Source: a virus
Taxonomy: Duplodnaviria > Heunggongvirae > Uroviricota > Caudoviricetes
DNA: 39,173 nucleotides
Virus record (IMG/VR): IMGVR_UViG_2563366802_000014
Direction: 5' to 3' (one strand)
Part shown: piece after piece, positions 8,436 to 27,681 of the stretch
Layout of the letters: the number at the start of each line of letters is the position of its first letter
Numbering within the stretch: the stretch's first letter is position 1
Position numbers and translations under genes: made by a program
The notes under the pieces: generated by a model
Databases searched by the model: none
Seen by the model: only the letters and a program-made list of their open reading frames with translations
Told to the model about the DNA's origin: nothing

Positions 8436-10910
8436 TTATTGCGGAGTGACATCCTGAGGTCGCCACCAGTATGTCTGGTTAAACTCTTTCTTCGAACGTT
8501 GCTCCATTTTACGCAAATAGCCTGGTGAAAAATACTCCTGCATCTGGTTAAAGATCATGTGATCAAGAGCTGCCTTCAAGTACCAGAGATTCGCACCTGG
8601 CATCAGCCCTTTCCCAAGTTTCACCAGATCACCACCAGTCTGCTCGTTCTTCCCTTCCACAGCATTTAATGGTATGCCCTGAGCTATCTTCACTACGTCA
8701 TCAATCAGGCCAGCTACCGGGCCAAGCATCGACGCCAGCGCGCCGCTTCCGTACCTAGTGTGATCTGACAATAAAAAGTCACCGTAAAGGCCAAGACCAC
8801 CACCTTTCAGTAGAGCACCAAGCCAAAATTTAGCAGCATCTTCTCCTGTCATCTCGCGAGGATTACGACCAGACGCAAGGTCGTTAAGTTGCTGCGACAA
8901 AGCGCCAAGAATGGTCGTACTGGCAATAAACGTCGCAATATATGCCGCACGCCCACCAGCAGACGGCATACCCATAGCGCGTGACCAGTGACGCATAACC
9001 ACCGAGATAGGGAACGATTTAAACAGGAAAACACTTCTCGTTAATTCACCTTTCCATGTTCCACGCTGAATACCAGAACCGGTTATCAGTTGCTCACGTG
9101 CTCCCGGTGTAATAACAGCCATATCAACTTCTTCAGTTACGGCACCGAGCAGTTTACGCATTGCCTCAAATTTCACGCGTTCAGGCTCACCAAGATGTTT
9201 AACTGCTGAATCAGGGATACGCATAATGCTTTCCGGTGTCAGCATCGTATTATTACCGTTCCCCCAGTCCTCCTGTTGCGCCAGCTTCCATACGCTCCAG
9301 TCTGTGTCAGTAATCCCTTTGCTTTTCAGGATACGAAAATCAGAGTCATCGAGGCTACGAAGGTCTGGTGTCCGTGACACTACTTCTCCCAGGCTTCCCA
9401 TCATGGTTACGCCATAGGCGCGCTTGTGCGCATCTGACCATGCTGTAAGCCCACTGGCACGCATTACCGCCGTTGCTGCCCAACGAGACACTGACGGCCC
9501 CATATTATCCATCGCCCAGCGGTTAACGCTGCCAAGTAGAGATTCCATTGCCAGACCAGCGCGGCGCGCCCGCGCAAGTTCTGTACGGTTCGTTGGGTCC
9601 ATAGCTTCAAGCTGGTTGCGGAATAACTGGTTCATTGGAAGGTTGGTCACCTTCGCAGACAGATACATGGTTCCAAGATCAGAGAACGATGATAGCAACG
9701 CGGATCCGAGTCTGCTGGCAACCAGCCAGTTGCGGATATTGTCAGACCATCGCGCGATGTGCGGATTCGCTACAGGCTGTGTCTTTCCGGAAATAAAGTT
9801 GTACAGATTCTCTGTGTTGTTCGCCAGCCGCTCGACTTTACCGGTTTTACTCGGGTTAGCTGTTGCCGTTTCTGCCTTAACCTGATCAAGAAGGGAGCGG
9901 AAAACATGATCGGGGTTTGGACCATATGTTTCCACCAGAGCAATATCTTTACTGATACCTTCCAGGTGACCGACCATGATTTCCCATAGAGAGCGATCGC
10001 CATAAAGTTGTTGATATTGGAGATAGGAATCAGCATCTTTGAAATGTATCTGTCGTGATGCATTACCACGGTTAGCACGTGCGCCGGAAATTCGCATTCC
10101 GGTATCAGTAAGCTTATTCAGCCCACCAGTAGCGATCGTGTTATAAGCCTCTCCAAGAAATGCAGACAACTCGGCACCGTTCATCAGTTGTCCATCGGCT
10201 CGGGTATAATATTTGCGATCCAGCTTACCTATAACATCGTTAACCCACTTATCCTTTGATACCGCCCCAACCTTTTCCATAGAATGATGTTGAGGGATCC
10301 CCCAGTTTTCGAGATAGCCAATGTCCCCACCAGCATCATTAAACCGGCGGCGCAGCAGCTCTGTAACTTCTCTCCACGCCTTAGCACCTTTTCTTGCTTT
10401 AGCATTGCCAGTATTTTGCCCCCGCATTTCATATACCAGGTCACGTACGCCCGCTTCATCTTCAAACAGACCAAAAAAGCGAGGATCAACTGCTTCGAAT
10501 GCCTCCTGCAATTGACTCAATGCATAATCACGGGTGGCTTTTGTTCTGGATTCAACAGAGAGGAAATTAGATTTACCGTCTGCATTAAAAGCTATAGTAC
10601 GGTTAAGAGCGCCAAGTTTCCCATCAGCCCCTTGATAGCTATTGATAAATTTATCCAATCTCTGACGCGCGGCTATAGTGAGAGCCACACGACGTTTCTT
10701 TAATGCCGCTTCTCGCTGTAATTCTTCAGATGCCAATTGTGCTGCTCGATATAGCCGCTCTGATTCGGAAAGTTGTCGCCACGACATCGGGTCATCACGA
10801 GCAATGGAGCGCATATTTCGATAAATGCGGTCTTCAATGTTCTGTATTTCTCGCGCCGTTAACATGCGCTGCGCCGCCTGCTGAACCGCCTGTATACATT
10901 CCTGTCTCAT
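8436..10910 (-). CDS. Large internal virion / ejection protein (824 aa)
   Basis: Large ORF in the run of virion genes between the tail-tube-like genes and the tailspike; role inferred from size and position only. Confidence 0.55.
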   Translation of the reverse strand: MRQECIQAVQQAAQRMLTAREIQNIEDRIYRNMRSIARDDPMSWRQLSESERLYRAAQLASEELQREAALKKRRVALTIAARQRLDKFINSYQGADGKLGALNRTIAFNADGKSNFLSVESRTKATRDYALSQLQEAFEAVDPRFFGLFEDEAGVRDLVYEMRGQNTGNAKARKGAKAWREVTELLRRRFNDAGGDIGYLENWGIPQHHSMEKVGAVSKDKWVNDVIGKLDRKYYTRADGQLMNGAELSAFLGEAYNTIATGGLNKLTDTGMRISGARANRGNASRQIHFKDADSYLQYQQLYGDRSLWEIMVGHLEGISKDIALVETYGPNPDHVFRSLLDQVKAETATANPSKTGKVERLANNTENLYNFISGKTQPVANPHIARWSDNIRNWLVASRLGSALLSSFSDLGTMYLSAKVTNLPMNQLFRNQLEAMDPTNRTELARARRAGLAMESLLGSVNRWAMDNMGPSVSRWAATAVMRASGLTAWSDAHKRAYGVTMMGSLGEVVSRTPDLRSLDDSDFRILKSKGITDTDWSVWKLAQQEDWGNGNNTMLTPESIMRIPDSAVKHLGEPERVKFEAMRKLLGAVTEEVDMAVITPGAREQLITGSGIQRGTWKGELTRSVFLFKSFPISVVMRHWSRAMGMPSAGGRAAYIATFIASTTILGALSQQLNDLASGRNPREMTGEDAAKFWLGALLKGGGLGLYGDFLLSDHTRYGSGALASMLGPVAGLIDDVVKIAQGIPLNAVEGKNEQTGGDLVKLGKGLMPGANLWYLKAALDHMIFNQMQEYFSPGYLRKMEQRSKKEFNQTYWWRPQDVTPQ

Positions 10911-10915
10911 TTAAT

Positions 10916-12718
10916 TTAACCTCTCAAGAAACACGCCACAGCGACATCAAACAGGCTGGAATCCTGTATTGCCTGCTCACTTTCCCTGTTCGCTTCATCC
11001 AGTACTTCACGCGCACTGCGCGATTGTGGATTACCATCATCATCCAGCACGGTGATTATCATGTCAGGTGATTCAAGCAGCGAGTCTTCAGCTATACGCA
11101 GATCAATATCTCCTGCCGGATCTGCCATCATTTTTTGTTCTGTCTGTTGCAATATCTTACCGGGCTCAAAAGGAGCTACTTCGTCTGGCGTCCTGACCTC
11201 TGCTGTTTTATAGAATGAAACAGCCTGAGCATTAAGTTCACTTTCTGCCTGCTGTCGTCGTGCCAGTTCTGCTCGAGCTTCAAAAAACTGACCGCCAGGC
11301 TCATGCGGTGCCAACGCGTTACGGGAAAATTCCAGGCGCTCTTGTGCCTGCCGGATTCGTTGGTCAATATCGCGAAGTCTGACCTGTTTATCTGATCGAG
11401 CACGAGACAAAGCTTTACCGCTACCGGTTGGCTCTTCTGCAAGAATTTGTGCGCGCTGTTCAGTGAGATTTTCAATAATTCGTTGGCTATTAGCGATTTC
11501 AGACTGGTAAACCTGTCTATCGCCACGCGGCAAAAGCTGCGCGGCCTGTTCTTCAAGCAACCGATTTTCTATAGCGCGCGCCGTTACTCCATCATCTACA
11601 GATGACAGAGCCTCATTAACTGCCTGAGACAGCAGACTCTTGCGCCCAGGAATTTCACTGAAAGATGCAGACTCAACAATGCTGGCAACGTCTACAGGTC
11701 TCCCCTGGCTAACATCAGACATAGCTTTTCGCAGAGCCTGAATGTGAGAATTGCGCGAAAGCACGTTGATCGGCACGCCGGGCGCAATATCAATTTCAGC
11801 ATGATGAGCGGCATTCGCCGCCAGTGCAGCATCAACATCAACTGGTGAAAAATTTGGTGCGCTTGTAGACTCGCCGCGAGAGTTCATAAATCTGCCGACA
11901 CCACCAAACGCCACCCCAAGAACAGCATCAATAGCAATTGCCTGTCGATCCAACACATCATACTGGTTAGCCATTTCGCTATAGCCACCATCACGAAGCG
12001 TTTTTGCAGTAAGCCCACGCTGTGCCATACCGAACGCAATATTTGTACCTGCGGCATAGGCAATATCTGGCGTTGCACGCACTGCTGTTGCTGCGGCGCG
12101 TCGCACTGAACTTTCACCCGTCCGCGCAAGCTGGGCCGCCACACCTTCCGCCAGCGCACCACCAGCACGTAACCCGAGGCTCATAGGGATCAGTGTTCCG
12201 GCACCAGCAGTAATACCCTGCACTAATCCCGCTTCCTGCGCCGTCCTGAAATCAACACCCTGTGCTGTCAGCCGTTCAAACTCAGAAAAACCCTGTAGAG
12301 AAGTTACCGCCGCAGCACCTCCGACCGGACCACCGAGCGTTGTACCGACAACAGCCTGCCCTCCCATATCGAACAACCCATAAAGGACCTGCCCGGCGGT
12401 TCCGGTTGTCGCGGCATCAGGCGTCAGCCGCTTAACCTGCTGCTCTGCTAGTTTTCTCTGCTCAGCAATGTATGAAACTGAAGTGTCATTAAGCGAGGTG
12501 TTTTCGTTAACAAACTGAGCAATCGGGGATACGATTTTATCCATCCCTGCCCATAGCAACTGATCTGGCTTTGCCACCAGCCCGGAGTACAAACCAGACA
12601 ATGCCGCTCCTACAGCATTGTCGAAAAAACCAACATTGCTGTTAAAGCCAGCTGGATTTGATGCTGCTTCGTCAAGCTGCTGATTCTGGCTTACTGGATT
12701 AAGGCCAAAGTAACTCAT
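10916..12718 (-). CDS. Internal virion / ejection protein (600 aa)
   Basis: Gly/Ala-rich large ORF translationally coupled to its neighbours; role inferred from position. Confidence 0.5.
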   Translation of the reverse strand: MSYFGLNPVSQNQQLDEAASNPAGFNSNVGFFDNAVGAALSGLYSGLVAKPDQLLWAGMDKIVSPIAQFVNENTSLNDTSVSYIAEQRKLAEQQVKRLTPDAATTGTAGQVLYGLFDMGGQAVVGTTLGGPVGGAAAVTSLQGFSEFERLTAQGVDFRTAQEAGLVQGITAGAGTLIPMSLGLRAGGALAEGVAAQLARTGESSVRRAAATAVRATPDIAYAAGTNIAFGMAQRGLTAKTLRDGGYSEMANQYDVLDRQAIAIDAVLGVAFGGVGRFMNSRGESTSAPNFSPVDVDAALAANAAHHAEIDIAPGVPINVLSRNSHIQALRKAMSDVSQGRPVDVASIVESASFSEIPGRKSLLSQAVNEALSSVDDGVTARAIENRLLEEQAAQLLPRGDRQVYQSEIANSQRIIENLTEQRAQILAEEPTGSGKALSRARSDKQVRLRDIDQRIRQAQERLEFSRNALAPHEPGGQFFEARAELARRQQAESELNAQAVSFYKTAEVRTPDEVAPFEPGKILQQTEQKMMADPAGDIDLRIAEDSLLESPDMIITVLDDDGNPQSRSAREVLDEANRESEQAIQDSSLFDVAVACFLRG

Positions 12719-15228
12719 TGCGGAATATCTCCGGAGAATCTCTGACGTTTCTGTGTCAGATTAAGAACAACGGGAGAACCATCATCTTTCAGCAGATAAC
12801 CAGTACCAAGTTTCACCAGGTACTGACTATCGCCGTAACTTTGCAAACCATACTGACCAGGCGGTGTTTTTATCCCGGAGCCGACAACTTGTTCATTCCA
12901 AGCCTGATTAACCTGCTTATCGAATTGCTCTGCAGACATTCCCCACGGCAAAAGGACATTCCCCATTCCGTTATAGTCATGCACGCCACCTGTAGCTACG
13001 TTAACAGCCTGTTTCCAGACATCATTGTCAATTTCGCCTGATACCACGCCTTTTTTCGCCATCACACCAGCGTAATAGTCCTTTGCGATCTCGTATGCCA
13101 TTGATGCCCCCTGAGCATCACCAGCAAATGCATCCTTCACCATGTCAGAAAACTCAAGGCGAAGATCAGCATCTTTAGGCATCGGAATACCTTTCGCATC
13201 ATCAGTACCTTTACGAGCCGCCGCGCCAGCAAGAATTGTCTGCGCAGCGGTTTCAGGAGACACGGAAACATCCGGATTAAACCAGTTTTTTTCTGCCAAA
13301 ATACCACCAGGCTTGTCCATCAGTATCCCGGCAACGGCAGCAGATGGAGCGTTGGCACTGATCTGCTGTAGTGCTGACATATACACCTGCCCACCACCAG
13401 TGCTCTGCCTGATGGTATCGAGATATGCTGCCTGTTGGGAAACTGGAGCATCACGAAAGAAAACACCGATCTGATTGGCCTCGTCTTTGGAAAAGAACGT
13501 CAGTGGAGTGCCATATGACTTAGCAAGGTCACTGACCTGAGCAGCACGCAAGGCAACGCTCTGTCCAAAGTTATCCTTATTGCTCATGTCGATAGGCTTT
13601 GCCTGTCCGGCGGCAAGAGAGAACTGTACAGGATCAGCCTGTCTCTGCTTTATCACCTGACTTGCAGCCGACACAACGTTGTCATAAAGAGCGGCTCGTG
13701 CCGCATAACCCTCCCCTGTCTCACCAGTATCCGGGCGTAATTGCTCAACATATGCTGTAATGCTGCTTGTCGGCATGTTGCGGAAAGAGCCTATATACTG
13801 TCCGGCGATTTGCGTATTTCTGAACTCGGTATATCGCAGGTTTCCTTCTCTGACTCCATAAGCTGCAATAAAATCAGCCTCACCAGGTGGGTTAGGAAAT
13901 TCAACGCCACGCATATACGCAGCTGTCGCATCGCGAACTTGGCTGTCAATCATCGTTTTATATTCAGCCTGCTGCTGCCGACGCAGTTGATCCGCCTGTC
14001 GCATAAAACTTGCCTGCGCCTCAGGAGATGCCGCATCGAATGCTGCATTACCGGTATAGCGTTTGGTGTTGGTTGGAATTGTTGATAAACCAAGTGCTGC
14101 ACTGACACCAGCAGTTAACTGCTGATCACTGTATGGCTGGCTACCGTTCTCATGATGGATAATGGCTGCACAAAGCGCCTTCAGGGTATCAGGATTAGAT
14201 GCATCGAGAGGCTCATCAGCAGAAACGCCAAGTTGTTCGCACACTGCTTTGATATACGACATAGTGTCATTTTTATCAGTAGGCGGTGCCCAGCGATTAA
14301 TTATCTCGCTGACGGTATCAATACCCTGTCTCTGATACGACATCAGGTTCCGCCCTAATGCACGAATCCCGTGTTCAGGTGTTTCGAATTTAGCAAATCG
14401 ACCATCATCACCGGTCTGGCCTACCCACGGATTGGTTTTGCTGTATTCGAGATTTCCTGGGTTATTGTTGCGTATGCCACGGGCACGCTCGGAAGAATCA
14501 CTATCTGCTACAGCACGGCGAGCTCCAGCAGCAGTATCACTTAACTCGCCATTACTTTGGATGAATGCGGTCGCATTGTTTGCCGACCACTGGGACAATG
14601 CTGCATCAGCAACCTTCTCTTTAAACTCGATTTTCTTGGCCTGGATTTGCTCGTCGCTCCAGCCATGCGCAATGCCGTAATCCTCAATTTGCTGGAAAGT
14701 TTGCTTATTAGCCAATACGTATGCGGCGTTGTCGCCATACAATGCTGCGGCATTTTTACCATTGTTCAGCAGCGTAGCCTGAAACTGGCCTTCTTCGTAG
14801 GCATTTATTTGCCCTATCTCGTGCCGCCCGGCCTGCGTAGTGAACTGAATGCGCTGCTGCTGCGCCTGCTGCATGAAAGCATTACGAGCCTGTTCATCCG
14901 GCAGCGACATAGCCAGTTGCTCGACCTTGGCATCAAACTGCTGCGTATACTCCTGACCTTTTCCAATAGCATTTTTCCCTTTCAGGTTAAGCAAACCTGT
15001 TTCAGGGTTATTCAGCAGATCGCTGCTTATCTGGCTTAAGCTAAGAGAAGCATCCTGAGCCATAGCAACATTCGCACGCTGTTTTGCCTGCGCAATAATA
15101 CCTGCATATTGCTCTGCAACATCGCCAAGTACATCACCGACATTTGGTGTCTGAAACGATGAGAATCCCTGCGTCGAAATCCCTCTGCTCTGAACCTGAC
15201 GGCCCGATGTTGTTGGTACAACTGGCAT
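12715..15228 (-). CDS. Large internal virion / ejection protein (837 aa)
   Basis: Large ORF in the virion gene run; contains the segment GIRNNNPGNLEYSKTNPWVGQ of unknown significance. Confidence 0.5.
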   Translation of the reverse strand: MPVVPTTSGRQVQSRGISTQGFSSFQTPNVGDVLGDVAEQYAGIIAQAKQRANVAMAQDASLSLSQISSDLLNNPETGLLNLKGKNAIGKGQEYTQQFDAKVEQLAMSLPDEQARNAFMQQAQQQRIQFTTQAGRHEIGQINAYEEGQFQATLLNNGKNAAALYGDNAAYVLANKQTFQQIEDYGIAHGWSDEQIQAKKIEFKEKVADAALSQWSANNATAFIQSNGELSDTAAGARRAVADSDSSERARGIRNNNPGNLEYSKTNPWVGQTGDDGRFAKFETPEHGIRALGRNLMSYQRQGIDTVSEIINRWAPPTDKNDTMSYIKAVCEQLGVSADEPLDASNPDTLKALCAAIIHHENGSQPYSDQQLTAGVSAALGLSTIPTNTKRYTGNAAFDAASPEAQASFMRQADQLRRQQQAEYKTMIDSQVRDATAAYMRGVEFPNPPGEADFIAAYGVREGNLRYTEFRNTQIAGQYIGSFRNMPTSSITAYVEQLRPDTGETGEGYAARAALYDNVVSAASQVIKQRQADPVQFSLAAGQAKPIDMSNKDNFGQSVALRAAQVSDLAKSYGTPLTFFSKDEANQIGVFFRDAPVSQQAAYLDTIRQSTGGGQVYMSALQQISANAPSAAVAGILMDKPGGILAEKNWFNPDVSVSPETAAQTILAGAAARKGTDDAKGIPMPKDADLRLEFSDMVKDAFAGDAQGASMAYEIAKDYYAGVMAKKGVVSGEIDNDVWKQAVNVATGGVHDYNGMGNVLLPWGMSAEQFDKQVNQAWNEQVVGSGIKTPPGQYGLQSYGDSQYLVKLGTGYLLKDDGSPVVLNLTQKRQRFSGDIPQ

Positions 15229-15240: not shown

Positions 15241-15780
15241 TTATCGACCGGTTGGAGTGCCAACAGCAGCAGAAATCGGCGCAGCCTTCTGAGAGAATGG
15301 GCTCCACGTTCCTCCGCCCATCTGGTATGCACCGTATGCTTTTAGTGGTGCCGTTAACAAAGTGCTGGTCATCGATGATTTAGCAGCCGACTGAGCAGCA
15401 GCCCCCTGTGCCTGAGCATTCATTCCCTGAACCTGATACCCATATGCCTCACGCTGAGCATTATTCACTGTCGTTAACGCATCAAGAGTGCCGAACTGAG
15501 CATTATCCGCAAAAACGTCAAGAGCTGTTCCGCTACTTAATTCCGCACCGGTAGCCCCCATAGTGGCCGCCGCAGTGCCTGAGCGTTGACGCATTTCACG
15601 ACGACGCTGATCCGCTTCAATATTCCCACGATTGATTGAATCCTGTGCCTGAGCTTCAGCAATTTCAGCATTCCGATCAGCTATGGCTGACTGGTATTTT
15701 GCCTGCTTGCTCTGGCTGTACATTGACGCGGCTGTGGATGCCACTGTGACGGCAACCAAAGCGATGGCTGGGTTACACAT
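15241..15780 (-). CDS. Internal virion protein, membrane-associated (179 aa)
   Basis: N-terminal hydrophobic segment then Ala/Gln/Gly-rich body; position comparable to small internal core proteins of podoviruses. Confidence 0.45.
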   Translation of the reverse strand: MCNPAIALVAVTVASTAASMYSQSKQAKYQSAIADRNAEIAEAQAQDSINRGNIEADQRRREMRQRSGTAAATMGATGAELSSGTALDVFADNAQFGTLDALTTVNNAQREAYGYQVQGMNAQAQGAAAQSAAKSSMTSTLLTAPLKAYGAYQMGGGTWSPFSQKAAPISAAVGTPTGR

Positions 15781-16244
15781 TATTTTCTCTCCATGTGAAA
15801 TCTGTGGAAATAAAGACCAAGAGCTCCATAAGGCGCGGCTTCTTCAAGCCTGAATCCAAGCCAGTGCAGCCATGCTTTGGCAACATGGTTTCGCTCGTCG
15901 ACGTAGTTTTCCAGGCGCGGATAAACTGCCAGCATCTGCTGCAATACAGGGCGGCAGTGGCGCAGAAATGTCTTCTGATATTTTTCAATACGGCTGGTTC
16001 CTACCAGCCAGGGCGTACCATTGCCACCGATCATTGACGCCGGAGATACACCAAACATGGTTACCAGTTCTCCGTTCGCGAACCCTGACCAGGCCATAGT
16101 CGCAGTGCGAAGACCAACAAGCAGCGCATCTTCGGTAGTCATCAGCGATACCGCATACAGTTCGTCAATATCAGCCTGACGAACATCCGGCAAAATCATC
16201 TGAAGATGCTCTTCGGTGGCGGGAATAATTCGAACATCGATCAT
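15780..16244 (-). CDS. Virion-associated protein (154 aa)
   Basis: ORF coupled between the tail-tube-B-like and internal protein genes; role from position only. Confidence 0.4.
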   Translation of the reverse strand: MIDVRIIPATEEHLQMILPDVRQADIDELYAVSLMTTEDALLVGLRTATMAWSGFANGELVTMFGVSPASMIGGNGTPWLVGTSRIEKYQKTFLRHCRPVLQQMLAVYPRLENYVDERNHVAKAWLHWLGFRLEEAAPYGALGLYFHRFHMERK

Positions 16245-19320: not shown

Positions 19321-19643
19321 TACTCACCCCCATTGCCGTACAGGGTTTCAGCCGCTGATTTTTCTACATCCCCGGAAACAGGAGCGATCGCCATATCAGT
19401 GATCTGCAGATCGGCGCTGCGATTAACACCATCGTCAGTTTCTCTGGCAGACAGGCCTCGAATAACAGCCTTTGCAGTTATCATCACTTCTGTTCCGACG
19501 CCCTGAGGTTGCGCCTTCAGCTTATTCAATGTGTCGTTATTAAGAGTGATGCACAGCCCCCACGGGTATTCATCGCGAGTTCTGGTTTCTCCGCTCTCAT
19601 CCTGGTAGCTGTCAGTGCCGGTTTTGAGGTTTACGAGTTCCAT
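19320..19643 (-). CDS. Hypothetical virion protein (107 aa)
   Basis: Start reassigned to ATG 19643 with RBS AGGAG 5 nt upstream; possible small capsid-associated protein by position. Confidence 0.5.
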   Translation of the reverse strand: MELVNLKTGTDSYQDESGETRTRDEYPWGLCITLNNDTLNKLKAQPQGVGTEVMITAKAVIRGLSARETDDGVNRSADLQITDMAIAPVSGDVEKSAAETLYGNGGE

Positions 19644-19693
19644 ATACACTCCTGCAATAAAGGGGCCGAAGCCCCTTGTCTGATCCGCGAGGC

Positions 19694-20038
19694 TTACACG
19701 CCCAGTTCTTTACGCTTATCTGCGATCTTCTCGCGGAGCGTTTCGGCTTTGGCGTTATGGTGTGGCTTCTCGTTAAAGAGCAATTCGTACTCTTCACGGA
19801 GCTTATCCAGTTCACCATCATCTGACACATCGTTGATGATTTTGGTGCTGGTTGCTGCCATTGACACCTTTCCTGCAACTTTTGCTTTTGCCTGTCTGGC
19901 TGCATCGTTCACAGGTTCCAGTGCGCTACCAGGCTCACCTTCGTATTCGATTTCTGCCCCCTCCGGCCACAGAGTGTTATGGATATGAGAGAGGCGCAGA
20001 ACGCGGTATCTTGGTTTCTCACCTGACATCGATATCAC
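19694..20038 (-). CDS. Hypothetical head-module protein (114 aa)
   Basis: ORF from track within the head gene run; followed by a hairpin at 19661-19676. Confidence 0.5.
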   Translation of the reverse strand: MISMSGEKPRYRVLRLSHIHNTLWPEGAEIEYEGEPGSALEPVNDAARQAKAKVAGKVSMAATSTKIINDVSDDGELDKLREEYELLFNEKPHHNAKAETLREKIADKRKELGV

Positions 20039-20039
20039 C

Positions 20040-20477
20040 TTAACCAGTTACTTTTGAGCGGATCGGGTACGGCGTATTGGCATCAACATCCAGACTGATA
20101 CCCGCAGTGAATTTGCCGGCCGTTAGTGGGCCAGTTGCGACGGAGTAGTTAACACGCAGATATCGCTGAACACCGGCAGGCACCTTTGCAGAAACAACTC
20201 GTTTACCTGCTGCCAGGGCGGTCTTTGCCAGTGCGCCACTATCATAAATAGTGGTCCATGAGCTGTTATTCTCACTCGTCTGCAACTGGATGTTTACAGT
20301 TGCCTCACCACTTGCCGTGGCGGCTTCGTTAACCAGCACCCAAAACTCAAGCGGGTAACCCACACCGATATCGCGACGGTTTCCATCAATTGGACCGAGA
20401 TCGATTACGTCAGTAGAAGCCGCGGTATTCGTAACCGCCTGAGCTTCGGAGAACATCAACAGTTTGTCGGTGATCAT
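20040..20477 (-). CDS. Putative capsid decoration / cement protein (145 aa)
   Basis: Small gene directly downstream of the major capsid gene; role inferred from position. Confidence 0.4.
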   Translation of the reverse strand: MITDKLLMFSEAQAVTNTAASTDVIDLGPIDGNRRDIGVGYPLEFWVLVNEAATASGEATVNIQLQTSENNSSWTTIYDSGALAKTALAAGKRVVSAKVPAGVQRYLRVNYSVATGPLTAGKFTAGISLDVDANTPYPIRSKVTG

Positions 20478-20528
20478 CTTCTTTCTCCATTAGTGGGTCT
20501 GTTACGACCCACAGGTTAATAACAGGCG

Positions 20529-21521
20529 TTACACCACGCGGGCTTCTGTTTCCAGAAGCGCATCAGTTTCACGGATTGGTACACCACGGAATGAAGTCCA
20601 CCACTCGCCTTCTGTCTCTTTTACGCTGATCGCCAGAGATGTTTTCTCCAGAGATTGCAGATCAAGAGCCTGGCCTACAGTGCGGTTCATGTAGAACACC
20701 GGGCGACCCATGCCACGATTTGGAATGCGATGCAGTGCTTTAACCATCAACTTCGCAATATTTGCGGCAGAGGAAGGTTCTGAAAGATTGCTGACATCGA
20801 TGTTTGCAATGCGAACAACATAACGCCAGTCACGCAGAGCAAGTCCGTTGTCCCATTTGTAATGGGTACGGTAGCCTTCGTACTTGCCGCCATTCGCATC
20901 TTCCAGTGTCACCTGGCCTTTATCTTCCATCTGGATGCCAGCCTTCTGCCCTTTCGGGAAGATGCCATGCACGGTGTTTTCGCCCCACACCACTAACCAG
21001 ATTGAGGTGTTATCTGTACCCGTGCCACCAGCATCAATGATGTTCTGAGCATTACCCGCAGACAGGCTGGAATAGCGGGAGGACAGTCCCATAAACTGCT
21101 GAGGGTTAACGCTGGAATCACCATAAAACAGTGTCTGCGCCATCTGCTGATTCATCGCTTCAATAAATGCGCGGTCTTCAGACAGGCGGAATTCGGCGGT
21201 ATTACCGTTCAGATCAGCCAGTGACTTATCGACTTCAGCATAGGTTTCCAGCATGCCAACGGAATCGGTTACCTGCACTGTGGTTGATTTGCTTGGCTGT
21301 ACGCCATAGTTCAGCAAACGCCAGGTAGCTGAAGGTAAACCAGAACGAATGGTGGTTCGGTGTCCGGTAGGAAGGTTCCCTTCGACAAAAGGCATATCCT
21401 GAAGGATCGGGTTAGTTTGACCGAGAAGCTCGATAATCTTATCGACTTTCCCGTTTGGATCGACGCGCTTACCCCAGTCAGCCAGCGTTAGCGCAGTTAA
21501 GCCTTTAACAGCCATTGTCAT
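20529..21521 (-). CDS. Major capsid protein
   Basis: 330-aa ORF directly downstream of the scaffold gene in portal-scaffold-capsid order; followed by a stem-loop at 20493-20512. Confidence 0.7.
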   Translation of the reverse strand: MTMAVKGLTALTLADWGKRVDPNGKVDKIIELLGQTNPILQDMPFVEGNLPTGHRTTIRSGLPSATWRLLNYGVQPSKSTTVQVTDSVGMLETYAEVDKSLADLNGNTAEFRLSEDRAFIEAMNQQMAQTLFYGDSSVNPQQFMGLSSRYSSLSAGNAQNIIDAGGTGTDNTSIWLVVWGENTVHGIFPKGQKAGIQMEDKGQVTLEDANGGKYEGYRTHYKWDNGLALRDWRYVVRIANIDVSNLSEPSSAANIAKLMVKALHRIPNRGMGRPVFYMNRTVGQALDLQSLEKTSLAISVKETEGEWWTSFRGVPIRETDALLETEARVV

Positions 21522-21529
21522 TTCCTCTC

Positions 21530-22225
21530 TTATTTGCCATAGAGCACTTCGGCCGCACTACGCTGGCCTTCATTACCACCGGTGACCATGCCATCTTCAG
21601 ACATCGCCTTTCCGATTTTCACGAACGTTTTGACCAGATCAGGGTGATTACCCAGCCCGGTGGTGTTCAGATATTCTTTGAGTTCAGGTGTCCCGAACTG
21701 GTCAAGCGCACGCTGTGCGGCGCTAAGGTTAGAAATCAACTTGTCGCCACCGATTTCTTTGTCAGCTTTTACATCCGCAGCCCACTGCTCGGTTGTTTTC
21801 TGCCAGGCTTCTGCCTGGCGCTGCTGAACACCTGCCAGAATCTTCGGATAAGCATCAACCAGCTTTTGCGCTTGCTCGTTGGTCAGGTTAAGTTCTCGCG
21901 CCACCGGCTCGAATTCCTTCAACGCTTCTGTATCCAGTTCTACGCCTTCGGCAGCCTGAAACTCGTACTTCTCAGGCGCACCCTCTGGTTTATCGCCGTC
22001 CTTTTTTTCATCCTGCTTATCGTTTTCAGGCTTTTTGTCATCAGCAGGTTTATCGCCATCAGCAACAGGTTGTGGCTTATCACCTTCCTGTTGTGATGGA
22101 TCACCAACTGGAGCAGGGTTATCACCTGCAGGCGCTGACGGTTCTGACGCAGCCGGAGCTGCTCCACCATCGACTGGTTGCTCATTGCAAAGACGGCGAT
22201 ACAGCAAACGCTCAAATAAACTCAT
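21530..22225 (-). CDS. Scaffolding protein
   Basis: Acidic, Pro/Asp/Lys-rich low-complexity N-terminus with helical C-terminus, lying between portal and capsid genes; start set at ATG 22225 with RBS AGGAG. Confidence 0.65.
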   Translation of the reverse strand: MSLFERLLYRRLCNEQPVDGGAAPAASEPSAPAGDNPAPVGDPSQQEGDKPQPVADGDKPADDKKPENDKQDEKKDGDKPEGAPEKYEFQAAEGVELDTEALKEFEPVARELNLTNEQAQKLVDAYPKILAGVQQRQAEAWQKTTEQWAADVKADKEIGGDKLISNLSAAQRALDQFGTPELKEYLNTTGLGNHPDLVKTFVKIGKAMSEDGMVTGGNEGQRSAAEVLYGK

Positions 22226-22227
22226 GA

Positions 22228-22524
22228 TCACTCCTGTTCACTGGCCTCTTTGGCCATCTTCAAATACTGTTCAGGGCAATGCGCCATAACGCGCTGAAAC
22301 AGTTCCAGCGCCAGATTGCGTTGCCCCTCATTAAATGCCATTGCCATAGCGTCCATCGGTGAGATAGCGGAAAACACACGGCCTTTCTCCAGCACCGACC
22401 AGACAACGCGACGCCCCTGTTCGCTGCTCATGACAAAGCGAATGTCATCAATTTCACGCTGCGCCATGTCACGTTGCTTACGGGCGTTTTCTTCTTTCAG
22501 TTGATCGTCTTCGTAATCTGTCAT
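22228..22524 (-). CDS. Hypothetical head-module protein (98 aa)
   Basis: ORF from track between portal and scaffold genes, translationally coupled. Confidence 0.5.
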   Translation of the reverse strand: MTDYEDDQLKEENARKQRDMAQREIDDIRFVMSSEQGRRVVWSVLEKGRVFSAISPMDAMAMAFNEGQRNLALELFQRVMAHCPEQYLKMAKEASEQE

Positions 22525-24200
22525 TGTGATTGCCCACCCTGACCACTAACTGCATTCGCCATAGCTGACAAAACACTCGGATCCGAAGTTTTAGCTTCGC
22601 TTAGCGTCTTGGCACCCTGTGCCGCCGCCATCCCCATCGCCATCATTTGTTGCTGCTGTTGCTGCTGTGCCCGTTGCTGGCGAGCATGCTCAACCTGTTC
22701 CTGCGGAACAATGACGGTTGGAGACACTCCGGACATATCAGCGAATGCATCGATCGCCTGATCAACGTTGAGTTTGTCGAGAGCTTCTGGTTTCGCTTGC
22801 GCAAGTTGACCAATGAAGTTAACCGTGGACGCCAGACTGGACAGGCCGATAGACTTCTGCGCCTGAGCCATGACGGAAATGTATTCGACCTTCAGGGGCA
22901 TGCCTTCCATCGCGTCAGGCGGTGGCGGCAGCATGTTTTTACGCACCATCATAGAGAAAGCGCGGTCAATGAGAGGATTAAGACATTCGTCGTTCAGACG
23001 CTCCAGAACCGGCCCCAACATCAGAAGTTTTTCTTCTTTCATTTCGATCACCGCTTCAACAGGCATCGAGCGGGTATTGATGTTCTGCAACATCATGAAC
23101 AGATCGACAAAGTAGGCGCTGTTAATGATTTGGCGAGTGTCCTGAATGTCTGCCACCAGATCTGCTGTACTGGGGTTAACCAGATAAGCAGGCCTGAAAC
23201 CATCCTGACCAGTAATCTGATCGATATACGTGATGTCGCCAGGAAGAAGGGAGGCGCGCTGATTCTTGAGGGAAGTCGGAGCAACCATCGGCGGATTGGT
23301 GGCTTTATCAATCAACTGCGACTTGCGCTTCTGGAGAAGCTGCAATGCCTTAACAGGTCCAAGCGCCAGCATACCCGGGCATGATGATCCATAAACATCT
23401 TCGCCGTTAACTTCCCAGCGCGGAGCCATAATTGGAAACTCATCGAATCCGGACTCACGCAACAACTTGTCGTTATCGCCGCCAACCTCGTAATAAACCG
23501 ATTTGAATGGCTTGTTCTTGCTATCCAGCTTCGATGTATCGCGGTCAATGTTCGGGTAAACCGAATGCATCACTTCGATCCACTTCTCGTAGGTGCCGCT
23601 TTCCCACATGCTTTTTACGGATTCGCTGACGTTATTTAGCCCGAACTCCTGAACAAGCTGACGAACAGTCATAGAGAACTTGCGAAAACAGGTGTCAACA
23701 CTGCCACGAGGTGAGTTAGCCAGGTAGTAACTGCCTATCGGGAATGGCATTGTGCGAATGATGTCCTCGTCATCCTCCAGCACTGCCATTGCACCAGTGC
23801 TGTATGTGCCGAGGCTTCCGTATAACTGCGGAAGAGACTGGTAGAGATTCGACTTATTGAACATATCGTTCATGCGGTTCTGCACCGCCTCAAGCCACAA
23901 CTTAACAGGGCCATAATCCATCATTTCAGGATCTGGCGTAGCCAGGCGAAACCACGGACGCGCGGGGCTTGTGATGCCTGACATCATGCCGCTGGCGAGA
24001 GTGCGCGCCGCCATAGTCCCGGTCGAATCAATAATGCGTGTATTGCGTCGATCGTTACGGTTGACCTCTGAAGTCAGAAAGCGGGAACCACGCGGGTTGA
24101 TGTAATCACTCAACTCGCGCCAGTGCGGCTCGAACGACTGACGCTCGCTTTCAAGTTGTGCGAACTGTTTGTTCAATCGCTCTTTAGTTGTTTCCGCCAT
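22521..24200 (-). CDS. Portal protein
   Basis: 559-aa ORF downstream of the terminase genes; Gln-rich C-terminal tail; function by position and size. Confidence 0.7.
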   Translation of the reverse strand: MAETTKERLNKQFAQLESERQSFEPHWRELSDYINPRGSRFLTSEVNRNDRRNTRIIDSTGTMAARTLASGMMSGITSPARPWFRLATPDPEMMDYGPVKLWLEAVQNRMNDMFNKSNLYQSLPQLYGSLGTYSTGAMAVLEDDEDIIRTMPFPIGSYYLANSPRGSVDTCFRKFSMTVRQLVQEFGLNNVSESVKSMWESGTYEKWIEVMHSVYPNIDRDTSKLDSKNKPFKSVYYEVGGDNDKLLRESGFDEFPIMAPRWEVNGEDVYGSSCPGMLALGPVKALQLLQKRKSQLIDKATNPPMVAPTSLKNQRASLLPGDITYIDQITGQDGFRPAYLVNPSTADLVADIQDTRQIINSAYFVDLFMMLQNINTRSMPVEAVIEMKEEKLLMLGPVLERLNDECLNPLIDRAFSMMVRKNMLPPPPDAMEGMPLKVEYISVMAQAQKSIGLSSLASTVNFIGQLAQAKPEALDKLNVDQAIDAFADMSGVSPTVIVPQEQVEHARQQRAQQQQQQQMMAMGMAAAQGAKTLSEAKTSDPSVLSAMANAVSGQGGQSQ

Positions 24201-24214
24201 TTCAATGACTCCGG

Positions 24215-24421
24215 TTACTGACCAAGCAGCGTTTTACCGCTGGTATTAGCGGTTGATGTGTCGCCCTGAGAACCAGTAAGCAGCGTAGAACTACGACCAG
24301 CAGCAGCGCGACGGCGACGTGTTTCTTCGTCGCGGGCATCAACAACGGCGGCATCCTGCTCCTGTGGTGCTGCCTGAACTTCTGGTGTTGCAGGCACTGA
24401 TGGTGAGCTACCCATGCACAT
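24215..24421 (-). CDS. Small hypothetical protein (68 aa)
   Basis: Ala/Arg/Glu-rich ORF with RBS GGAG 8 nt upstream, ending 15 nt before the portal start. Confidence 0.35.
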   Translation of the reverse strand: MCMGSSPSVPATPEVQAAPQEQDAAVVDARDEETRRRRAAAGRSSTLLTGSQGDTSTANTSGKTLLGQ

Positions 24422-24848: not shown

Positions 24849-24925
24849 GTGGCATTAGCTCAGTCGGACAGAGCAACCGCCTTCTAAGCGGTTGGTCGCA
24901 GGTTCGAATCCTGCATGCCACGCCA
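24849..24925 (+). tRNA. tRNA-Arg (anticodon UCU)
   Basis: Hand-folded cloverleaf: 7-bp acceptor stem GTGGCAT/ATGCCAC, D-arm GCTC..GAGC, anticodon stem ACCGC/GCGGT with loop CTTCTAA (anticodon TCT), T-arm GCAGG-TTCGAAT-CCTGC, discriminator G and encoded CCA. Confidence 0.85.
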
Positions 24926-24968
24926 GAATCACGCCTAAGGACCGTGATGCCAGAAGTTCCAGGTGCTT

Positions 24969-25010
24969 GGCGGTGATGGTTTCCCTTGAAGGACTATCAC
25001 CGCCCTTTTT
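24969..25010 (+). terminator. Rho-independent terminator downstream of the tRNA
   Basis: 9-bp stem GGCGGTGAT / ATCACCGCC followed by CTTTTT; the loop is long (18 nt). Confidence 0.5.
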
Positions 25011-25123
25011 ACAGCAGGACGCCATTGCGATGACTTCATGCTGTAAACCCGTACAGCCACGGAAGGCATAACTCATTGCTTCCAGTTCGCCCGGTTCGCC
25101 GGGCATTTTTTTAAGGTGAGATT

Positions 25124-25480
25124 ATGAACGACCAGCAAATCGAAAAAGAAATCGTTGAGAAAGGCAAAACCGCTCCGCGAGTTACGCCTCAATATATCGA
25201 AAGCATCATTCTTGAAGAGCATTTCTTTACTGCTTATGACGGCATTCGTGCTGCCAATATGGGCGTTGGCGATTCATGGACAGCGCATAAATCTACAGAC
25301 CTCCTGACTTTCTGCGTACTGGTGCTGAAGAATGGCTTCACCGTCACCGGAGAAAGCGCCTGTGCAAGCACGGAAAACTTTGATGCAGAAATTGGTCGGA
25401 AGATTGCCCGGCAGAATGCTGTAAACAAAATCTGGATGCTCGAAGGTTACTTGCTGAAGCAGAAGCTAAGCGAGCAATAA
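25124..25480 (+). CDS. Hypothetical phage protein (118 aa), oriented against the flanking packaging genes
   Basis: ORF from track with RBS AAGGTGAG; tentatively resembles a small phage protein family of the Gp49 type, from memory only. Confidence 0.55.
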   Translation: MNDQQIEKEIVEKGKTAPRVTPQYIESIILEEHFFTAYDGIRAANMGVGDSWTAHKSTDLLTFCVLVLKNGFTVTGESACASTENFDAEIGRKIARQNAVNKIWMLEGYLLKQKLSEQ

Positions 25481-25484
25481 CACC

Positions 25485-25496
25485 GTGACATGTCAC
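25485..25496. repeat. 12-bp perfect palindrome GTGACATGTCAC (copy 2 of 3)
   Basis: Begins 5 nt after the TAA stop of the 25124..25480 gene and 4 nt before the terminator. Confidence 0.8.
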
Positions 25497-25500
25497 AAAC

Positions 25501-25528
25501 AGCCAGCCTATGAGCTGGCTTTGTTTTA
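25501..25528 (+). terminator. Rho-independent terminator
   Basis: Stem AGCCAGC / GCTGGCT with 6-nt loop followed by TTGTTTTA. Confidence 0.7.
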
Positions 25529-25570
25529 TCCTCACCAGAGGATATCAACGACATTATCCCCACCAGCGGA

Positions 25571-27046
25571 TTAAGCATAAGGGTCATAATCCGTTATGGC
25601 CCTTCCCTGCTGGCTTTGCTGTCCTGGTATATTTATGCGTTTCGAGACCGGGAAAGCAAACGTCAGCAATAGCGCATCGCCTTTCCCCGGCGAACGCCCA
25701 AGTCGCTCCTTGATATCTTCCTTCGGTTCGATAACGATTTTACCGTCCACGCGAACTTTGTACTCTGCCGTCGACAGGTCGTCCGCTGTTTCCTGGTCAT
25801 CCAGCATGCCGCCGAGCCTCAGCCATGTCTTGCATGAGTTGAACATCTCCCCACGCTTGTTGAGCATCTGCGGGTCAGTAGACGCGCCACCGAACGGAAC
25901 AAGTTGCCATGTACGACCCCAGCCGTCACCGATTGACTTCAGACCAGTTCCGTAACCGAAGTCGATGAACACTGCGTCAGCCTGGTACTGGTCTTCAAAG
26001 TCAGCGATACGCTTCGCCATAATCAGATCGTCAGTGGTCTTGTTGCCGGTCCACAGCACCTTACTATGCAGCCCCTGCCGCAGGTATATCACAGCATCAT
26101 CAACACCGGAGTATGCCGGGTCAACGCCGATTATCACCGGAGCATGTGCCACCTGCGCAGCGGTTATCACCCGTTTCATTGCCTCGTCAGTAAGTCCGGT
26201 AGGGATAAACTGCAATTCAGATGCATCAGGGAATATGCCGCGCACACGGATTTTAACGAAGTCACTGTCTTCCCCGTAGTCATCAACCCATTTCTGCAAC
26301 TGCTGTTTGTTGGTGCCTTCCACCGTCCGGCTGTCAATCTGCGCAGTTTTCCAGCGGTGTTTATACTTGCGGAAACATTCACGGAATCGCCCGGTATTAC
26401 GCGTCGGGTTTCCGAACGCCACCCAAATAATCTCAGTGTCTTCGTCCGTAAGCGCACCCTCGGCAACTTCCCACACCAGATCCGCAATGTTCGACGCTTC
26501 ATCGAATACCACGATAATGCGTTTGCGCTCGTTGTGTAGTCCTGCGAATGCCTCAGTGTTGTGCTCAGACCAGGGGATTGCGTCAGCTCGCCACCGCTTG
26601 TCGTGTCCAGGATCATTGCTGTACATCGCGGTAGCGGTGCAGGTGAACCAGTCTTTCGTGATAGCAAGGTTCGACCACTTGATAATTTCAGGCCAGGTCT
26701 TCGTTCGTAGTTGGTTGTCGGTGTTGGCGGTCACCACGACCTTACAATCCTCGCAAGTGGACATGCCCCAGTTGATCAGCATTGAGATGAATGCGGATTT
26801 ACCAATACCGTGACCAGAAGCACGTGCCAGCATAAGCGGCTGATATCGCGTCTCTGGATTCTGCAGGTGATCACGTATCTCTCGGAACGCATCGGCCTGC
26901 CACTGACGTGGACCGGTGGCATGTGCCAGTTCAGTACCCTCTTCCCCCCACGGGAACGCATAGAGGGCATAGCCAAGCGGATCGTGAGTGAACCCTGCAA
27001 TATCCTCGATTAACTGCTCTTCAGGAGATAACGCTGTATCTGTCAC
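25571..27046 (-). CDS. Terminase large subunit
   Basis: 491 aa; N-terminal ATPase-like region with a candidate Walker A (GHGIGKS); overlaps the small subunit gene end; precedes portal. Confidence 0.85.
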   Translation of the reverse strand: MTDTALSPEEQLIEDIAGFTHDPLGYALYAFPWGEEGTELAHATGPRQWQADAFREIRDHLQNPETRYQPLMLARASGHGIGKSAFISMLINWGMSTCEDCKVVVTANTDNQLRTKTWPEIIKWSNLAITKDWFTCTATAMYSNDPGHDKRWRADAIPWSEHNTEAFAGLHNERKRIIVVFDEASNIADLVWEVAEGALTDEDTEIIWVAFGNPTRNTGRFRECFRKYKHRWKTAQIDSRTVEGTNKQQLQKWVDDYGEDSDFVKIRVRGIFPDASELQFIPTGLTDEAMKRVITAAQVAHAPVIIGVDPAYSGVDDAVIYLRQGLHSKVLWTGNKTTDDLIMAKRIADFEDQYQADAVFIDFGYGTGLKSIGDGWGRTWQLVPFGGASTDPQMLNKRGEMFNSCKTWLRLGGMLDDQETADDLSTAEYKVRVDGKIVIEPKEDIKERLGRSPGKGDALLLTFAFPVSKRINIPGQQSQQGRAITDYDPYA

Positions 27047-27639
27047 TGATTGCCATCCTGACGTTCTTTCAGTCTCTTCCTGGCTGCCGCTATGCGATCA
27101 GCAATTGTCACATTCACATTAACATCCAGGCGTTCTTTGAATGCGTTGACGTCGACGTGCTTACCAATCAGTTCGAGGTTCTTCACCTTGTCAGGCCATT
27201 TAATTTTTTTGAGGATTGTCTCTATCGAATCCTCGTTCATGTTCATGATGGTCGATGACAGATCAAAGCCGCTAAGCGTAGTGCGCCAGATTTTCGGCCA
27301 CTCTCGGATTGGCTTAAGGCTCCCATCGTCGTTGAGGATGTCGATCACGTCCATCTGGTCGATCTCCACCAGACGCATGAGAACGTAATCAGCACTGACG
27401 CGCATTCGTTTGTTGCGCTCCTCCATCAGCTCGGCAATCCGTTTTTGAATGCGTTCATCGCGCATCATGACACTGGCTTTAACTGCTGCTGTATTTGGGG
27501 AGAATCCTGCGTTAATCGCTGCCTGAGTCTGGTTTTCAGGCGTTTTGATGTATGACTGGCAATAAGCCTCCTGCATTGCTGTTAGTGGCTTAAATTGCGT
27601 TGATTTGCGTTTATAGGTTTTAGGTTCAGCAGGCATCAT
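27043..27639 (-). CDS. Terminase small subunit
   Basis: Resembles small terminase proteins and is translationally coupled to the large subunit; start reassigned to ATG 27639 (MMPAEPKTYKRK) rather than the track start 27717. Confidence 0.75.
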   Translation of the reverse strand: MMPAEPKTYKRKSTQFKPLTAMQEAYCQSYIKTPENQTQAAINAGFSPNTAAVKASVMMRDERIQKRIAELMEERNKRMRVSADYVLMRLVEIDQMDVIDILNDDGSLKPIREWPKIWRTTLSGFDLSSTIMNMNEDSIETILKKIKWPDKVKNLELIGKHVDVNAFKERLDVNVNVTIADRIAAARKRLKERQDGNQ

Positions 27640-27671: not shown

Positions 27672-27681
27672 TAGTACCATG

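Follow-up and report, generated by a model that had tools for sequence, protein, structure and literature searches.

A phiV10-like Uetakevirus prophage of Escherichia coli with T7-type virion gene order and a K5-lyase tailspike

A stretch of viral DNA of 39,173 nucleotides (IMG/VR record IMGVR_UViG_2563366802_000014; hereafter the window) was analysed, positions 8436–27639 of which had been proposed from the letters alone to form a mosaic, with a podovirus-type virion module under lambdoid regulation and lysis genes at its distal end (the original prediction). The whole element is almost certainly an integrated phiV10-like prophage of the genus Uetakevirus, the epsilon15-like temperate podophages, lying at the guaA-proximal attachment (att) site of an Escherichia coli chromosome. 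Its identity, gene order, protein domain families, att site and the statistics of a recurrent palindrome are reported below as observed in the window. Positions 8436–27639 constitute the late morphogenesis operon set of the prophage, encoded on the minus strand from the terminase through the large internal proteins.

A megablast search of positions 8436–27639 against 50,697 phage records returned ten records covering at least 80% of this segment. The top eight were E. coli phages (among them vB_EcoP_ZX5, the O157 typing phages 9 and 10, phiV10, phiv142-3, PAS61 and HEMP4) with 97–98% identity over 94–97% of the 19.2 kb, showing that the layout recognised in the original prediction is not a product of chance. 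Enterobacter phage Tyrion (82% identity) and Salmonella phage epsilon15 (76%) were next in the ranking. The remaining parts of the window also match phiV10-type phages, at approximately 97% DNA identity over 64–97% of the parts, with phiV10 itself covering 78% of positions 1–25000 and 64% of positions 25001–39173 at about 97% identity. Every annotated phiV10 protein mapped to the window in strictly collinear order (tblastn), and the structural genes were 95–100% identical to those of phiV10, with the exception of the homologue of p17, a protein of 179 amino acids (aa), at 64%. Gene-by-gene collinearity was also found with epsilon15, at protein identities of 28–94%.

Both phiV10 and epsilon15 are placed in Uetakevirus in the RefSeq taxonomy. 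Genera are delimited by the International Committee on Taxonomy of Viruses at approximately 70% or more nucleotide identity across the genome to recognised members; identity to phiV10 was 97–98% over 78–97% of the queried segments, and the gene order (terminase, portal, capsid, adaptor/nozzle, internal proteins, tailspike, lysis, att-int and early arms) is that of the genus. Species are usually delimited at 95% identity or more over the whole genome, and on that basis the prophage falls outside the species Uetakevirus phiV10, its tailspike and accessory regions being divergent. As coverage multiplied by identity is below 95% against any single phage record, it would be a different species. Apart from the tailspike region described below, phiV10 differs in its accessory genes at window positions 7206–8240 and 28124–29977 and in its homologues p17 and p03, which are only 64–70% identical. 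The phiV10 relatives (ZX5, phiv142-3, PAS61, HEMP4, O157 typing phages 9 and 10 and TL-2011b) have an identical gene order and the same att core and integrase, while epsilon15, the type member of the genus, presents the same overall map from terminase to lysis, att/int and early arms, with TerL 94%, nozzle 88% and integrase 87% identical.

The two ends of the window fix the state of the element:

1–1161, plus strand: host flank with yfgH and yfgI (non-phage), matched in 5,422 of the 5,426 complete E. coli genomes searched and annotated in strain ECSC054
1162–1178, minus strand: 17-bp att core ATTGAGTGGGAATGATT, the attR of the prophage, an exact single match with 0 expected by chance
37923–39173, minus strand: tyrosine integrase

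The sequence ATTGAGTGGGAATGATT has been published as the attP of phiV10, epsilon15 and ZX5 (PMC9782041). Integration in Uetakevirus uses this core at the 3' end of guaA, and the exact core was found here beside yfgI and yfgH. The first base of the integrase gene is the final one of the window (39173). Bounded by host flank and att core on one side and by the integrase start on the other, the window represents a prophage in its integrated state, running from attR to int, and not the genome of a free phage; the attL/guaA junction is just past base 39173. The element was seen here only in integrated form with attL outside the window, and several E. coli genomes bear variants with rearranged accessory regions, as might be expected of a defective or cryptic remnant that keeps virion genes and yields no particles. 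We regard such a remnant as improbable: every essential gene is intact and has the same length as in the plaque-forming phages phiV10, ZX5 and PAS61, identities are mostly 95–100% with a structural minimum of 64% (the 179-aa p17 homologue), no frameshifts or insertion sequence elements were seen, and RecE and RecT are separate intact genes.

The virion block of the prophage comprises the following features:

27043–27639, minus strand: TerS, 198 aa from the ATG at 27639
25571–27046, minus strand: TerL, 491 aa (Pfam Terminase_2, 1.4e-29; PHROG 2 TerL; 94% identical to epsilon15 gp2)
22521–24200, minus strand: portal, 559 aa (Pfam Head-tail_con, 1.6e-187; PDB Carin-1 portal 8ck0, 9.6e-179)
Within 22228–24421, minus strand: small open reading frames (ORFs) of 98 and 68 aa beside the portal
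21530–22231, minus strand: 233-aa scaffold-like protein ('protease' in databases), between portal and capsid in the T7 gp9 position
20529–21521, minus strand: major capsid protein, 330 aa (Pfam PF20911 epsilon15 GP7, 2e-149)
19320–20477, minus strand: three head-accessory proteins of 145, 111 and 107 aa
18715–19320, minus strand: adaptor, 201 aa, T7 gp11 equivalent (PDB 8ck1_E, Carin-1 'connector', 2e-26)
16244–18715, minus strand: nozzle, 823 aa, T7 gp12 equivalent (PDB 8ck1_A, Carin-1 'tail nozzle', 1.5e-217)
15241–16244, minus strand: internal virion proteins of 154 aa (gp13 position) and 179 aa (T7 gp14 family) (PHROGs 308 and 418, 'internal virion protein')
12715–15228, minus strand: 837-aa internal protein with a lytic transglycosylase domain (aa 249–398)
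10916–12718, minus strand: 600-aa virion protein in the epsilon15 gp16 slot, 97% identical to phiV10 p19
8436–10910, minus strand: 824-aa virion or internal protein in the epsilon15 gp17 slot, candidate T7 gp16-like ejection protein

The gene order and sizes given in the original prediction (559, 330, about 200, about 820 and 600–840 aa) were all recovered as minus-strand ORFs, and its end coordinate, 27639, is exactly the in-frame ATG of the 198-aa TerS; its inventory of the block left out the 154- and 179-aa genes and the three head-accessory genes. The epsilon15-type or T7-type podovirus layout, which it had proposed from protein sizes, is now borne out by homology. In T7 (Autographiviridae), the virion genes run from the gp8 portal through the gp9 scaffold, gp10 capsid and gp11–gp16 to the gp17 fibre, then holin and spanins. 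The prophage runs from the portal through a 98-aa ORF, the 233-aa protein, the capsid, three head proteins, the adaptor and the nozzle to the 154-, 179-, 837-, 600- and 824-aa proteins, and resumes after an inserted block with the tailspike, two holin-type proteins, a GH19 endolysin and Rz/Rz1, so that the T7 order from gp8 to gp17 is present together with an adaptor and nozzle tail.

Closest homology was found not with siphoviruses or myoviruses but with podoviruses, Carin-1, LME-1, BPP-1 and epsilon15 being the closest structurally solved relatives, and homology to solved podovirus portal-tail complexes suggests that the virion has podovirus morphology. The marine phage Carin-1, LME-1, BPP-1 and PhiXacm4-11 have homologous portal, adaptor, nozzle and capsid proteins and differ in hosts, receptor-binding domains and early regions. 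The 201- and 823-aa proteins, whose sizes the original prediction gave correctly while describing them as tail-tube-like, are identified as adaptor and nozzle by their homology to Carin-1 (8CK1), with more distant matches to the adaptor and nozzle of Legionella phage LME-1 (9EFK). The LME-1 portal-tail complex closely resembles the T7 tail complex, its tail parts are closest to those of Carin-1, and the genes that it has in common with T7 are arranged in T7 order (PMC12407071).

The portal and gp14 Pfam families and a transglycosylase domain in an internal protein are shared with T7. The prophage differs from T7 in its temperate lifestyle and lack of T7-type replication genes (no family match to a phage RNA polymerase was found, and all ORFs of more than 490 aa are terminase, portal, nozzle, internal proteins or tailspike), in the position of its terminase, which precedes the portal instead of closing the genome, and in the likely placement of the transglycosylase in the gp15-slot protein with the gp16 slot split into 600 and 824 aa. 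Pairwise sequence similarity to T7 is undetectable for most proteins.

At the head of the block, TerS is annotated in phiV10 as a 224-aa protein, corresponding here to a start at the TTG at 27717. This call crosses a terminator-like hairpin and two operator palindromes (27639–27717), and the ATG at 27639, giving 198 aa as in epsilon15 gp1, is the more plausible start. A tRNA and an ORF lie between TerL and the portal:

24849–24925, plus strand: tRNA-Arg, anticodon TCT (ARAGORN; Rfam tRNA, 73 bits)
24855–25106, minus strand: ORF homologous to phiV10 p04

The 3' end of the p04-like ORF is overlapped on the opposite strand by the tRNA-Arg(TCT), and this hypothetical coding sequence may be spurious. 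The tRNA may also account for the many Synechococcus phage matches in the megablast search.

For the 233-aa protein between portal and capsid, the label 'protease' or 'endoprotease' is found in most records and originates from a similarity note in the epsilon15 record. No protease family was matched in Pfam, NCBIfam or PDB searches. The protein is acidic (pI 4.6) with only a single His and a single Cys; its first 90 residues are disordered and rich in Pro, Asp, Glu and Lys, and its C-terminal part is largely helical-looking, as judged by eye from the sequence. Conservation of the family is confined to residues ~80–233, across BPP-1, Carin-1, Pseudomonas AF and Pelagibacter podophages, and some annotators of these relatives use 'capsid assembly protein'. 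Position and composition favour a scaffold, as the original prediction had it, as a better guess than a protease.

The capsid protein matched BPP-1 (3j4u, 9.5e-129) better than epsilon15 (3j40, 2e-85) in the PDB, in agreement with the similarity notes of the phiV10 record, which also place the capsid closer to Bordetella BPP-1. It would adopt the HK97 fold and be accompanied by decoration or staple proteins. Identity to epsilon15 varies along the genome: 94% for TerL, 81% for the portal, 75% for the 233-aa protein, 43% for the capsid, 35–43% for the three head-accessory proteins, 84% for the adaptor, 88% for the nozzle, 59%, 32% and 28% for the 837-, 600- and 824-aa proteins, and 82–90% for the lysis proteins. 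With the capsid shell genes (19320–21521) at 35–43% and the flanking genes at 75–88%, members of the genus appear to have swapped a capsid-shell sub-module.

Of the internal virion proteins, the 179-aa protein matched the Pfam family PF24072 T7_gp14 (8.2e-8; 32.8 bits against a cutoff of 27) and the 154-aa protein weakly matched T7_Gp13 (0.089); from these profile matches we read the two as probable counterparts of gp14 and gp13, respectively. The transglycosylase domain of the 837-aa protein matched the N-terminal domain of the 1,295-aa Gp29 (PDB 9vvp, 3.8e-38) and an endolysin (7q47, 2.7e-17), and the PHROG labels of the whole protein are 'head protein' and 'tail injection transglycosylase'. 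The 600-aa protein had no credible PDB match and no Pfam match in single-sequence searches, and the 824-aa protein had no credible PDB match either as a single sequence or as a 30-sequence profile; weak PETase matches in the PDB searches of both (E ~0.1–1) were discarded as noise. A homologue search with the 600-aa protein brought up only E. coli copies at 99–100% identity. In a small-set comparison with T7, no significant similarity emerged from pairwise phmmer searches or from shallow hhalign profiles of three sequences. Only for portal/gp8, 154 aa/gp13 and 179 aa/gp14 was the positional counterpart the best T7 match, at low probability, and the 837-, 600- and 824-aa proteins returned nothing against the T7 proteins by either approach.

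The family of the 824-aa protein comprises 5,127 clusters at 50% identity. Its AlphaFold2 model, built from a 44-sequence alignment, is confident and all-helical, with a predicted local distance difference test score of 85 and a predicted template modelling score of 0.86. In a Foldseek search of the PDB, the sole high-probability match was a chain of 1,223 residues in the mature T7 core (9JYY; probability 0.97, E 4.5e-3), yet with TM-scores of 0.23 and 0.17; this chain is gp16, because its length fits gp16 only. Single proteins of 1,700–2,900 aa in other phages combine the N-terminal part of the 600-aa protein with the complete 824-aa protein, and one of them bears an ART-PolyVal ADP-ribosyltransferase domain; further relatives of the 824-aa protein carry insertions of 220–320 aa near residue 575 (fused or insertion-bearing relatives: P0260, P0262, P0268, P0314, P0357 and P0244). 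These fusions and insertions resemble 'polyvalent' injected proteins. In Xanthomonas phage PhiXacm4-11 (preprint), the corresponding slots are filled by a gp14-like protein, a transglycosylase protein of 730 aa and a protein of 2,300 aa. PhiXacm4-11 thus has the same internal-protein slot layout, with its third core protein as one 2,300-aa polypeptide, in agreement with the fused 600 + 824 forms found in relatives.

Position, the fusions and the one fold match suggest, and only suggest, that the 837-aa protein occupies the gp15 slot, with a transglycosylase, and that the 600- and 824-aa proteins form a split gp16 slot. All three would be packaged in the head and presumably ejected, the 837-aa transglycosylase digesting peptidoglycan and the ejected proteins extending the short tail across the cell envelope; for the 600- and 824-aa proteins such an ejection role is a prediction. 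Ejection proteins listed under 'Epsilon 15' in Table 1 of PMC8954989 (gp11, 229 aa; gp12, 499 aa; gp13, 708 aa) were not used, because the epsilon15 genome record gives 201 aa for gp11, 825 aa for gp12 and 154 aa for gp13; that row probably belongs to a different phage.

The tailspike and lysis genes follow the virion block at its distal side:

3159–5621, minus strand: tailspike, 820 aa, with an epsilon15-type N-terminal adaptor-binding part (aa 1 to ~180), a K5 (heparosan) lyase domain and a C-terminal chaperone-like domain
2682–3086, minus strand: 134-aa holin-like membrane protein
2387–2695, minus strand: holin
1768–2397, minus strand: endolysin of glycoside hydrolase family 19 (GH19; Pfam Glyco_hydro_19)
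1289–1771, minus strand: Rz, with an embedded Rz1 at 1300–1572

The lysis genes (1289–3086) come after the tailspike and not before the terminase, as the original prediction stated; the order that it gave was right, while both modules lie outside positions 8436–27639, in which it had included them. The N-terminus of the tailspike is 68–70% identical to phiV10 p25 and epsilon15 gp20 and is homologous to the N-terminal domain of Carin-1 Dpo31. In the PDB the tailspike matched K5 lyase (2x3h, 1e-185), 9vvr (2e-226) and 3gw6 (6e-20), whereas phiV10 carries an O157-specific receptor-binding domain. Of 5,426 complete E. coli genomes, 68 carry the lyase-encoding part with at least 99% identity. In length (820 aa), the tailspike matches the chromosomal E. 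coli K5 lyase ElmA. ElmA is listed as prophage-borne in a review (PMC3594737).

Between tailspike and lysis genes there is a gap of only 72 bp (3087–3158). Here phiV10 (oac, an O-acetyltransferase) and epsilon15 (gp21 and gp22) carry O-antigen serotype-conversion genes, which are absent from the prophage, and their absence fits a capsule-specific rather than an O-antigen-specific phage. The lysis cassette matched the Pfam families Phage_holin_8, Phage_holin_3_7 and Glyco_hydro_19 and is 80–97% identical to phiV10 p27–p30a.

A 2.5-kb, mostly opposite-strand block (5803–8240) separates the tailspike from the virion block:

5803–6075, plus strand: p24-like ORF
6158–6233, plus strand: isrK-like small RNA (Rfam RF01394, 77.9 bits, full length)
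6258–6343, plus strand: C4 antisense RNA (Rfam RF01695, 77.7 bits, full length)
6391–7086, plus strand: Bro-N antirepressor (Pfam Bro-N, 2e-21)
7206–7841, plus strand: 211-aa ORF (PHROG 1349, unknown function)
7944–8240, minus strand: small multi-pass membrane ORF of 98 aa
8253–8426, minus strand: small multi-pass membrane ORF of 57 aa

The 211-aa ORF and the 98- and 57-aa membrane ORFs have no phiV10 counterpart. A PADLOC search of the accessory ORFs returned nothing but a methyltransferase, the 211-aa ORF being without a match.

Regulation centres on an immunity region and a late regulator on the other side of the virion block:

32902–33871: immunity switch region, with intergenic operators between divergent cro-like and repressor genes (Pfam HTH_3; PHROG 35)
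32902–33132, minus strand: cro-like gene, 76 aa
33287–33871, plus strand: helix-turn-helix (HTH) repressor, 194 aa
27758–28099, minus strand: late-region transcriptional regulator, 113 aa (PHROG 536; no Pfam family; 78% identical to epsilon15 gp49)

The repressor and cro-like proteins are 100% identical to phiV10 p40 and p41, and identical repressor, cro and P proteins, the isrK/C4/Bro-N module and the palindrome positions are shared across the phiV10 group. The palindrome TTACC-N5-GGTAA occurs in ten perfect copies in the window against 0.02 expected, and in 14 copies with at most one mismatch against 0.5 expected. Its approximately 13 sites (5726, 6107, 7153, 24512, 27639, 27657, 30824, 30886, 32832, 33169, 33217, 33929 and 33991) include a cluster around the repressor gene (33169, 33217, 33929 and 33991), with further copies upstream of the TerS, portal, tailspike, Bro-N, 211-aa ORF and DUF1064 operons. 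The 118-bp gap between the late regulator and TerS contains a promoter-like site, a terminator hairpin (27691–27708) and two of these operator palindromes. Matching motifs stand at equivalent positions in phiV10 and in epsilon15, the RefSeq record of which marks repressor sites, and the prophage repressor would be expected to bind the palindromes. Binding by another protein was considered, as the phiV10 and epsilon15 repressors are only 42% identical, and was dismissed because their N-terminal HTH region, including the stretch NLVNRW, is conserved. In a lysogen, the HTH repressor would hold expression off from the palindromes at the immunity region and before several late and accessory operons.

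A further level of control may be provided by the Bro-N antirepressor, governed by the C4/isrK antisense RNAs. C4 is an Rfam family of antisense RNA that controls the antirepressor of P1 and P7. In the manner of a P1/P7 immI-type locus, the C4 RNA of the prophage is co-oriented with Bro-N and lies 48 nt upstream of it, with the isrK-like RNA before C4, the function being predicted. The isrK/C4 pair is also found in phiV10 (L001 20278–20463), where it is not annotated as RNAs in RefSeq; the isrK/C4/Bro-N module is absent from epsilon15, which also differs in its repressor, in its O-antigen conversion genes and in the context of its replication initiator. IsrK is known as the Gifsy-1 RNA that switches on the read-through mRNA of its own locus and, indirectly, production of the antiterminator AntQ (PMC4825925).

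The replication genes and the left arm are as follows:

31720–32535, minus strand: initiator with HTH_36 and DnaT domains (Pfam DnaT, 1e-15; HTH_36, 2e-10)
30938–31738, minus strand: lambda-P-family helicase loader (Pfam Phage_lambda_P, 1.5e-56)
34679–39173: left arm with RecE-like nuclease, RecT, AlpA-type excisionase/regulator and MT-A70 methyltransferase (Pfam; 96–100% identical to phiV10)

An iteron-like array (32132–32284) of at least six repeats (A/T)TCCCGTTTT(T/C)GG at 18–24-bp spacing lies inside the initiator gene, between the HTH_36 and DnaT domains, in a lambda-O-like layout with a putative origin within the gene, and replication would use this initiator with its internal repeats together with the lambda-P-type helicase loader. 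The RecE-like (273 aa) and RecT (293 aa) proteins are encoded by separate overlapping ORFs (34679–36378), as in epsilon15, unlike the single 586-aa RecE-RecT fusion annotated in phiV10.

The lambdoid label of the original prediction holds for the divergent repressor and cro genes with clustered operators, for the initiator gene, which contains an iteron-like array and precedes the gene of the P-family loader, and for the recombination-xis-int arm (RecE/RecT, excisionase, integrase). It does not extend to the initiator family, which is HTH_36 + DnaT and not Phage_rep_O, nor to antitermination, with no N or Q antiterminator families found among the early-region ORFs in Pfam, PHROG and NCBIfam profile searches. 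Operators are spread over the genome rather than confined to OL and OR, lysis genes lie at 1289–3086 after the tailspike instead of between the late regulator and the terminase, and the antirepressor is controlled by C4/isrK RNAs.

Similarly, mosaicism is apt in a deep evolutionary sense but not as a new hybrid, the architecture being a fixed one in a known genus. A chimera of recent and novel origin, with a podovirus virion module joined to a lambdoid regulatory and replication backbone, might be read from the lambda-P-family protein, from the Ead/Ea22, DUF551 and DUF1064 accessory genes and from ~1.4 kb (28350–29720) that is 90–97% identical to Stx (Shiga toxin)-converting and other lambdoid phages. 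We nevertheless judge it very unlikely and largely refuted: both genome arms are collinear with phiV10 and epsilon15; the repressor, cro and P proteins are 100% and the initiator 97% identical to those of phiV10, with no lambdoid match at the DNA level; and the position of the lysis genes, the scattered operators and the late regulator are all typical of the genus. Lambdoid exchange is limited to accessory 'ea/nin-type' genes, the DNA common to lambdoid/Stx phages being confined to the ~1.4 kb at window positions ~28350–29720 with its DUF551 and Ead/Ea22 genes.

That the element is instead a P22-like podophage, the other temperate enterobacterial podovirus type with lambdoid control, is scarcely credible, for although it too is a temperate podovirus with an enzymatic tailspike and has its antirepressor module directly upstream of the tailspike gene, where immI of P22 also lies, its portal is of the T7-type Head-tail_con and not the P22 portal family, its capsid of the epsilon15 GP7/BPP-1 type, its tail of the T7/Carin-1 type with adaptor and nozzle and its lysis genes not before the terminase, and no P22-like record is among the DNA matches listed for 8436–27639. 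P22-type portal, coat and tail proteins (gp1, gp5 and gp4/gp10/gp26) are refuted by these family assignments.

Nothing contradicts the identification as a phiV10-like Uetakevirus prophage, but several functional steps are weak, and four points weigh against the full account given here. The attL side, which would show completeness of the prophage at that end, is beyond the window; the 600-aa protein is without a detectable homologue of known function; binding of the repressor to TTACC-N5-GGTAA in this lineage is a prediction; and the scaffold-like 233-aa protein carries a 'protease' label in most records.

Two further features of the prophage may, somewhat doubtfully, be put forward together. 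Acting at its ~13 sites, the repressor may directly shut off every late and accessory operon, following the logic of P1 C1 or of the mycobacteriophage 'stoperators' in place of a lambda-type cascade, an idea already hinted at by the RefSeq annotation of epsilon15. The gp16-slot ejection protein, split here into 600 and 824 aa, may be a modular 'polyvalent' carrier, with an insertion hot-spot near residue 575 for effector domains such as ADP-ribosyltransferase.

The prophage is a typical member of a known genus, whose architecture has already been described for epsilon15 (Kropinski et al. 2007), phiV10 (FEMS Microbiol Lett 2009; both cited in PMC9782041) and ZX5. Near-identical prophages are present in many sequenced E. 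coli genomes, and the value of the finding as a discovery is little. Its use is that the identification is settled, that a guess from protein sizes proved right and that the lambdoid label is refined. For the curation of Uetakevirus genomes, it provides several points: a tailspike with a K5 lyase domain, unannotated C4/isrK RNAs, a likely TerS start, the choice between scaffold and 'protease' as a label and a putative gp16-slot protein that is split in two.

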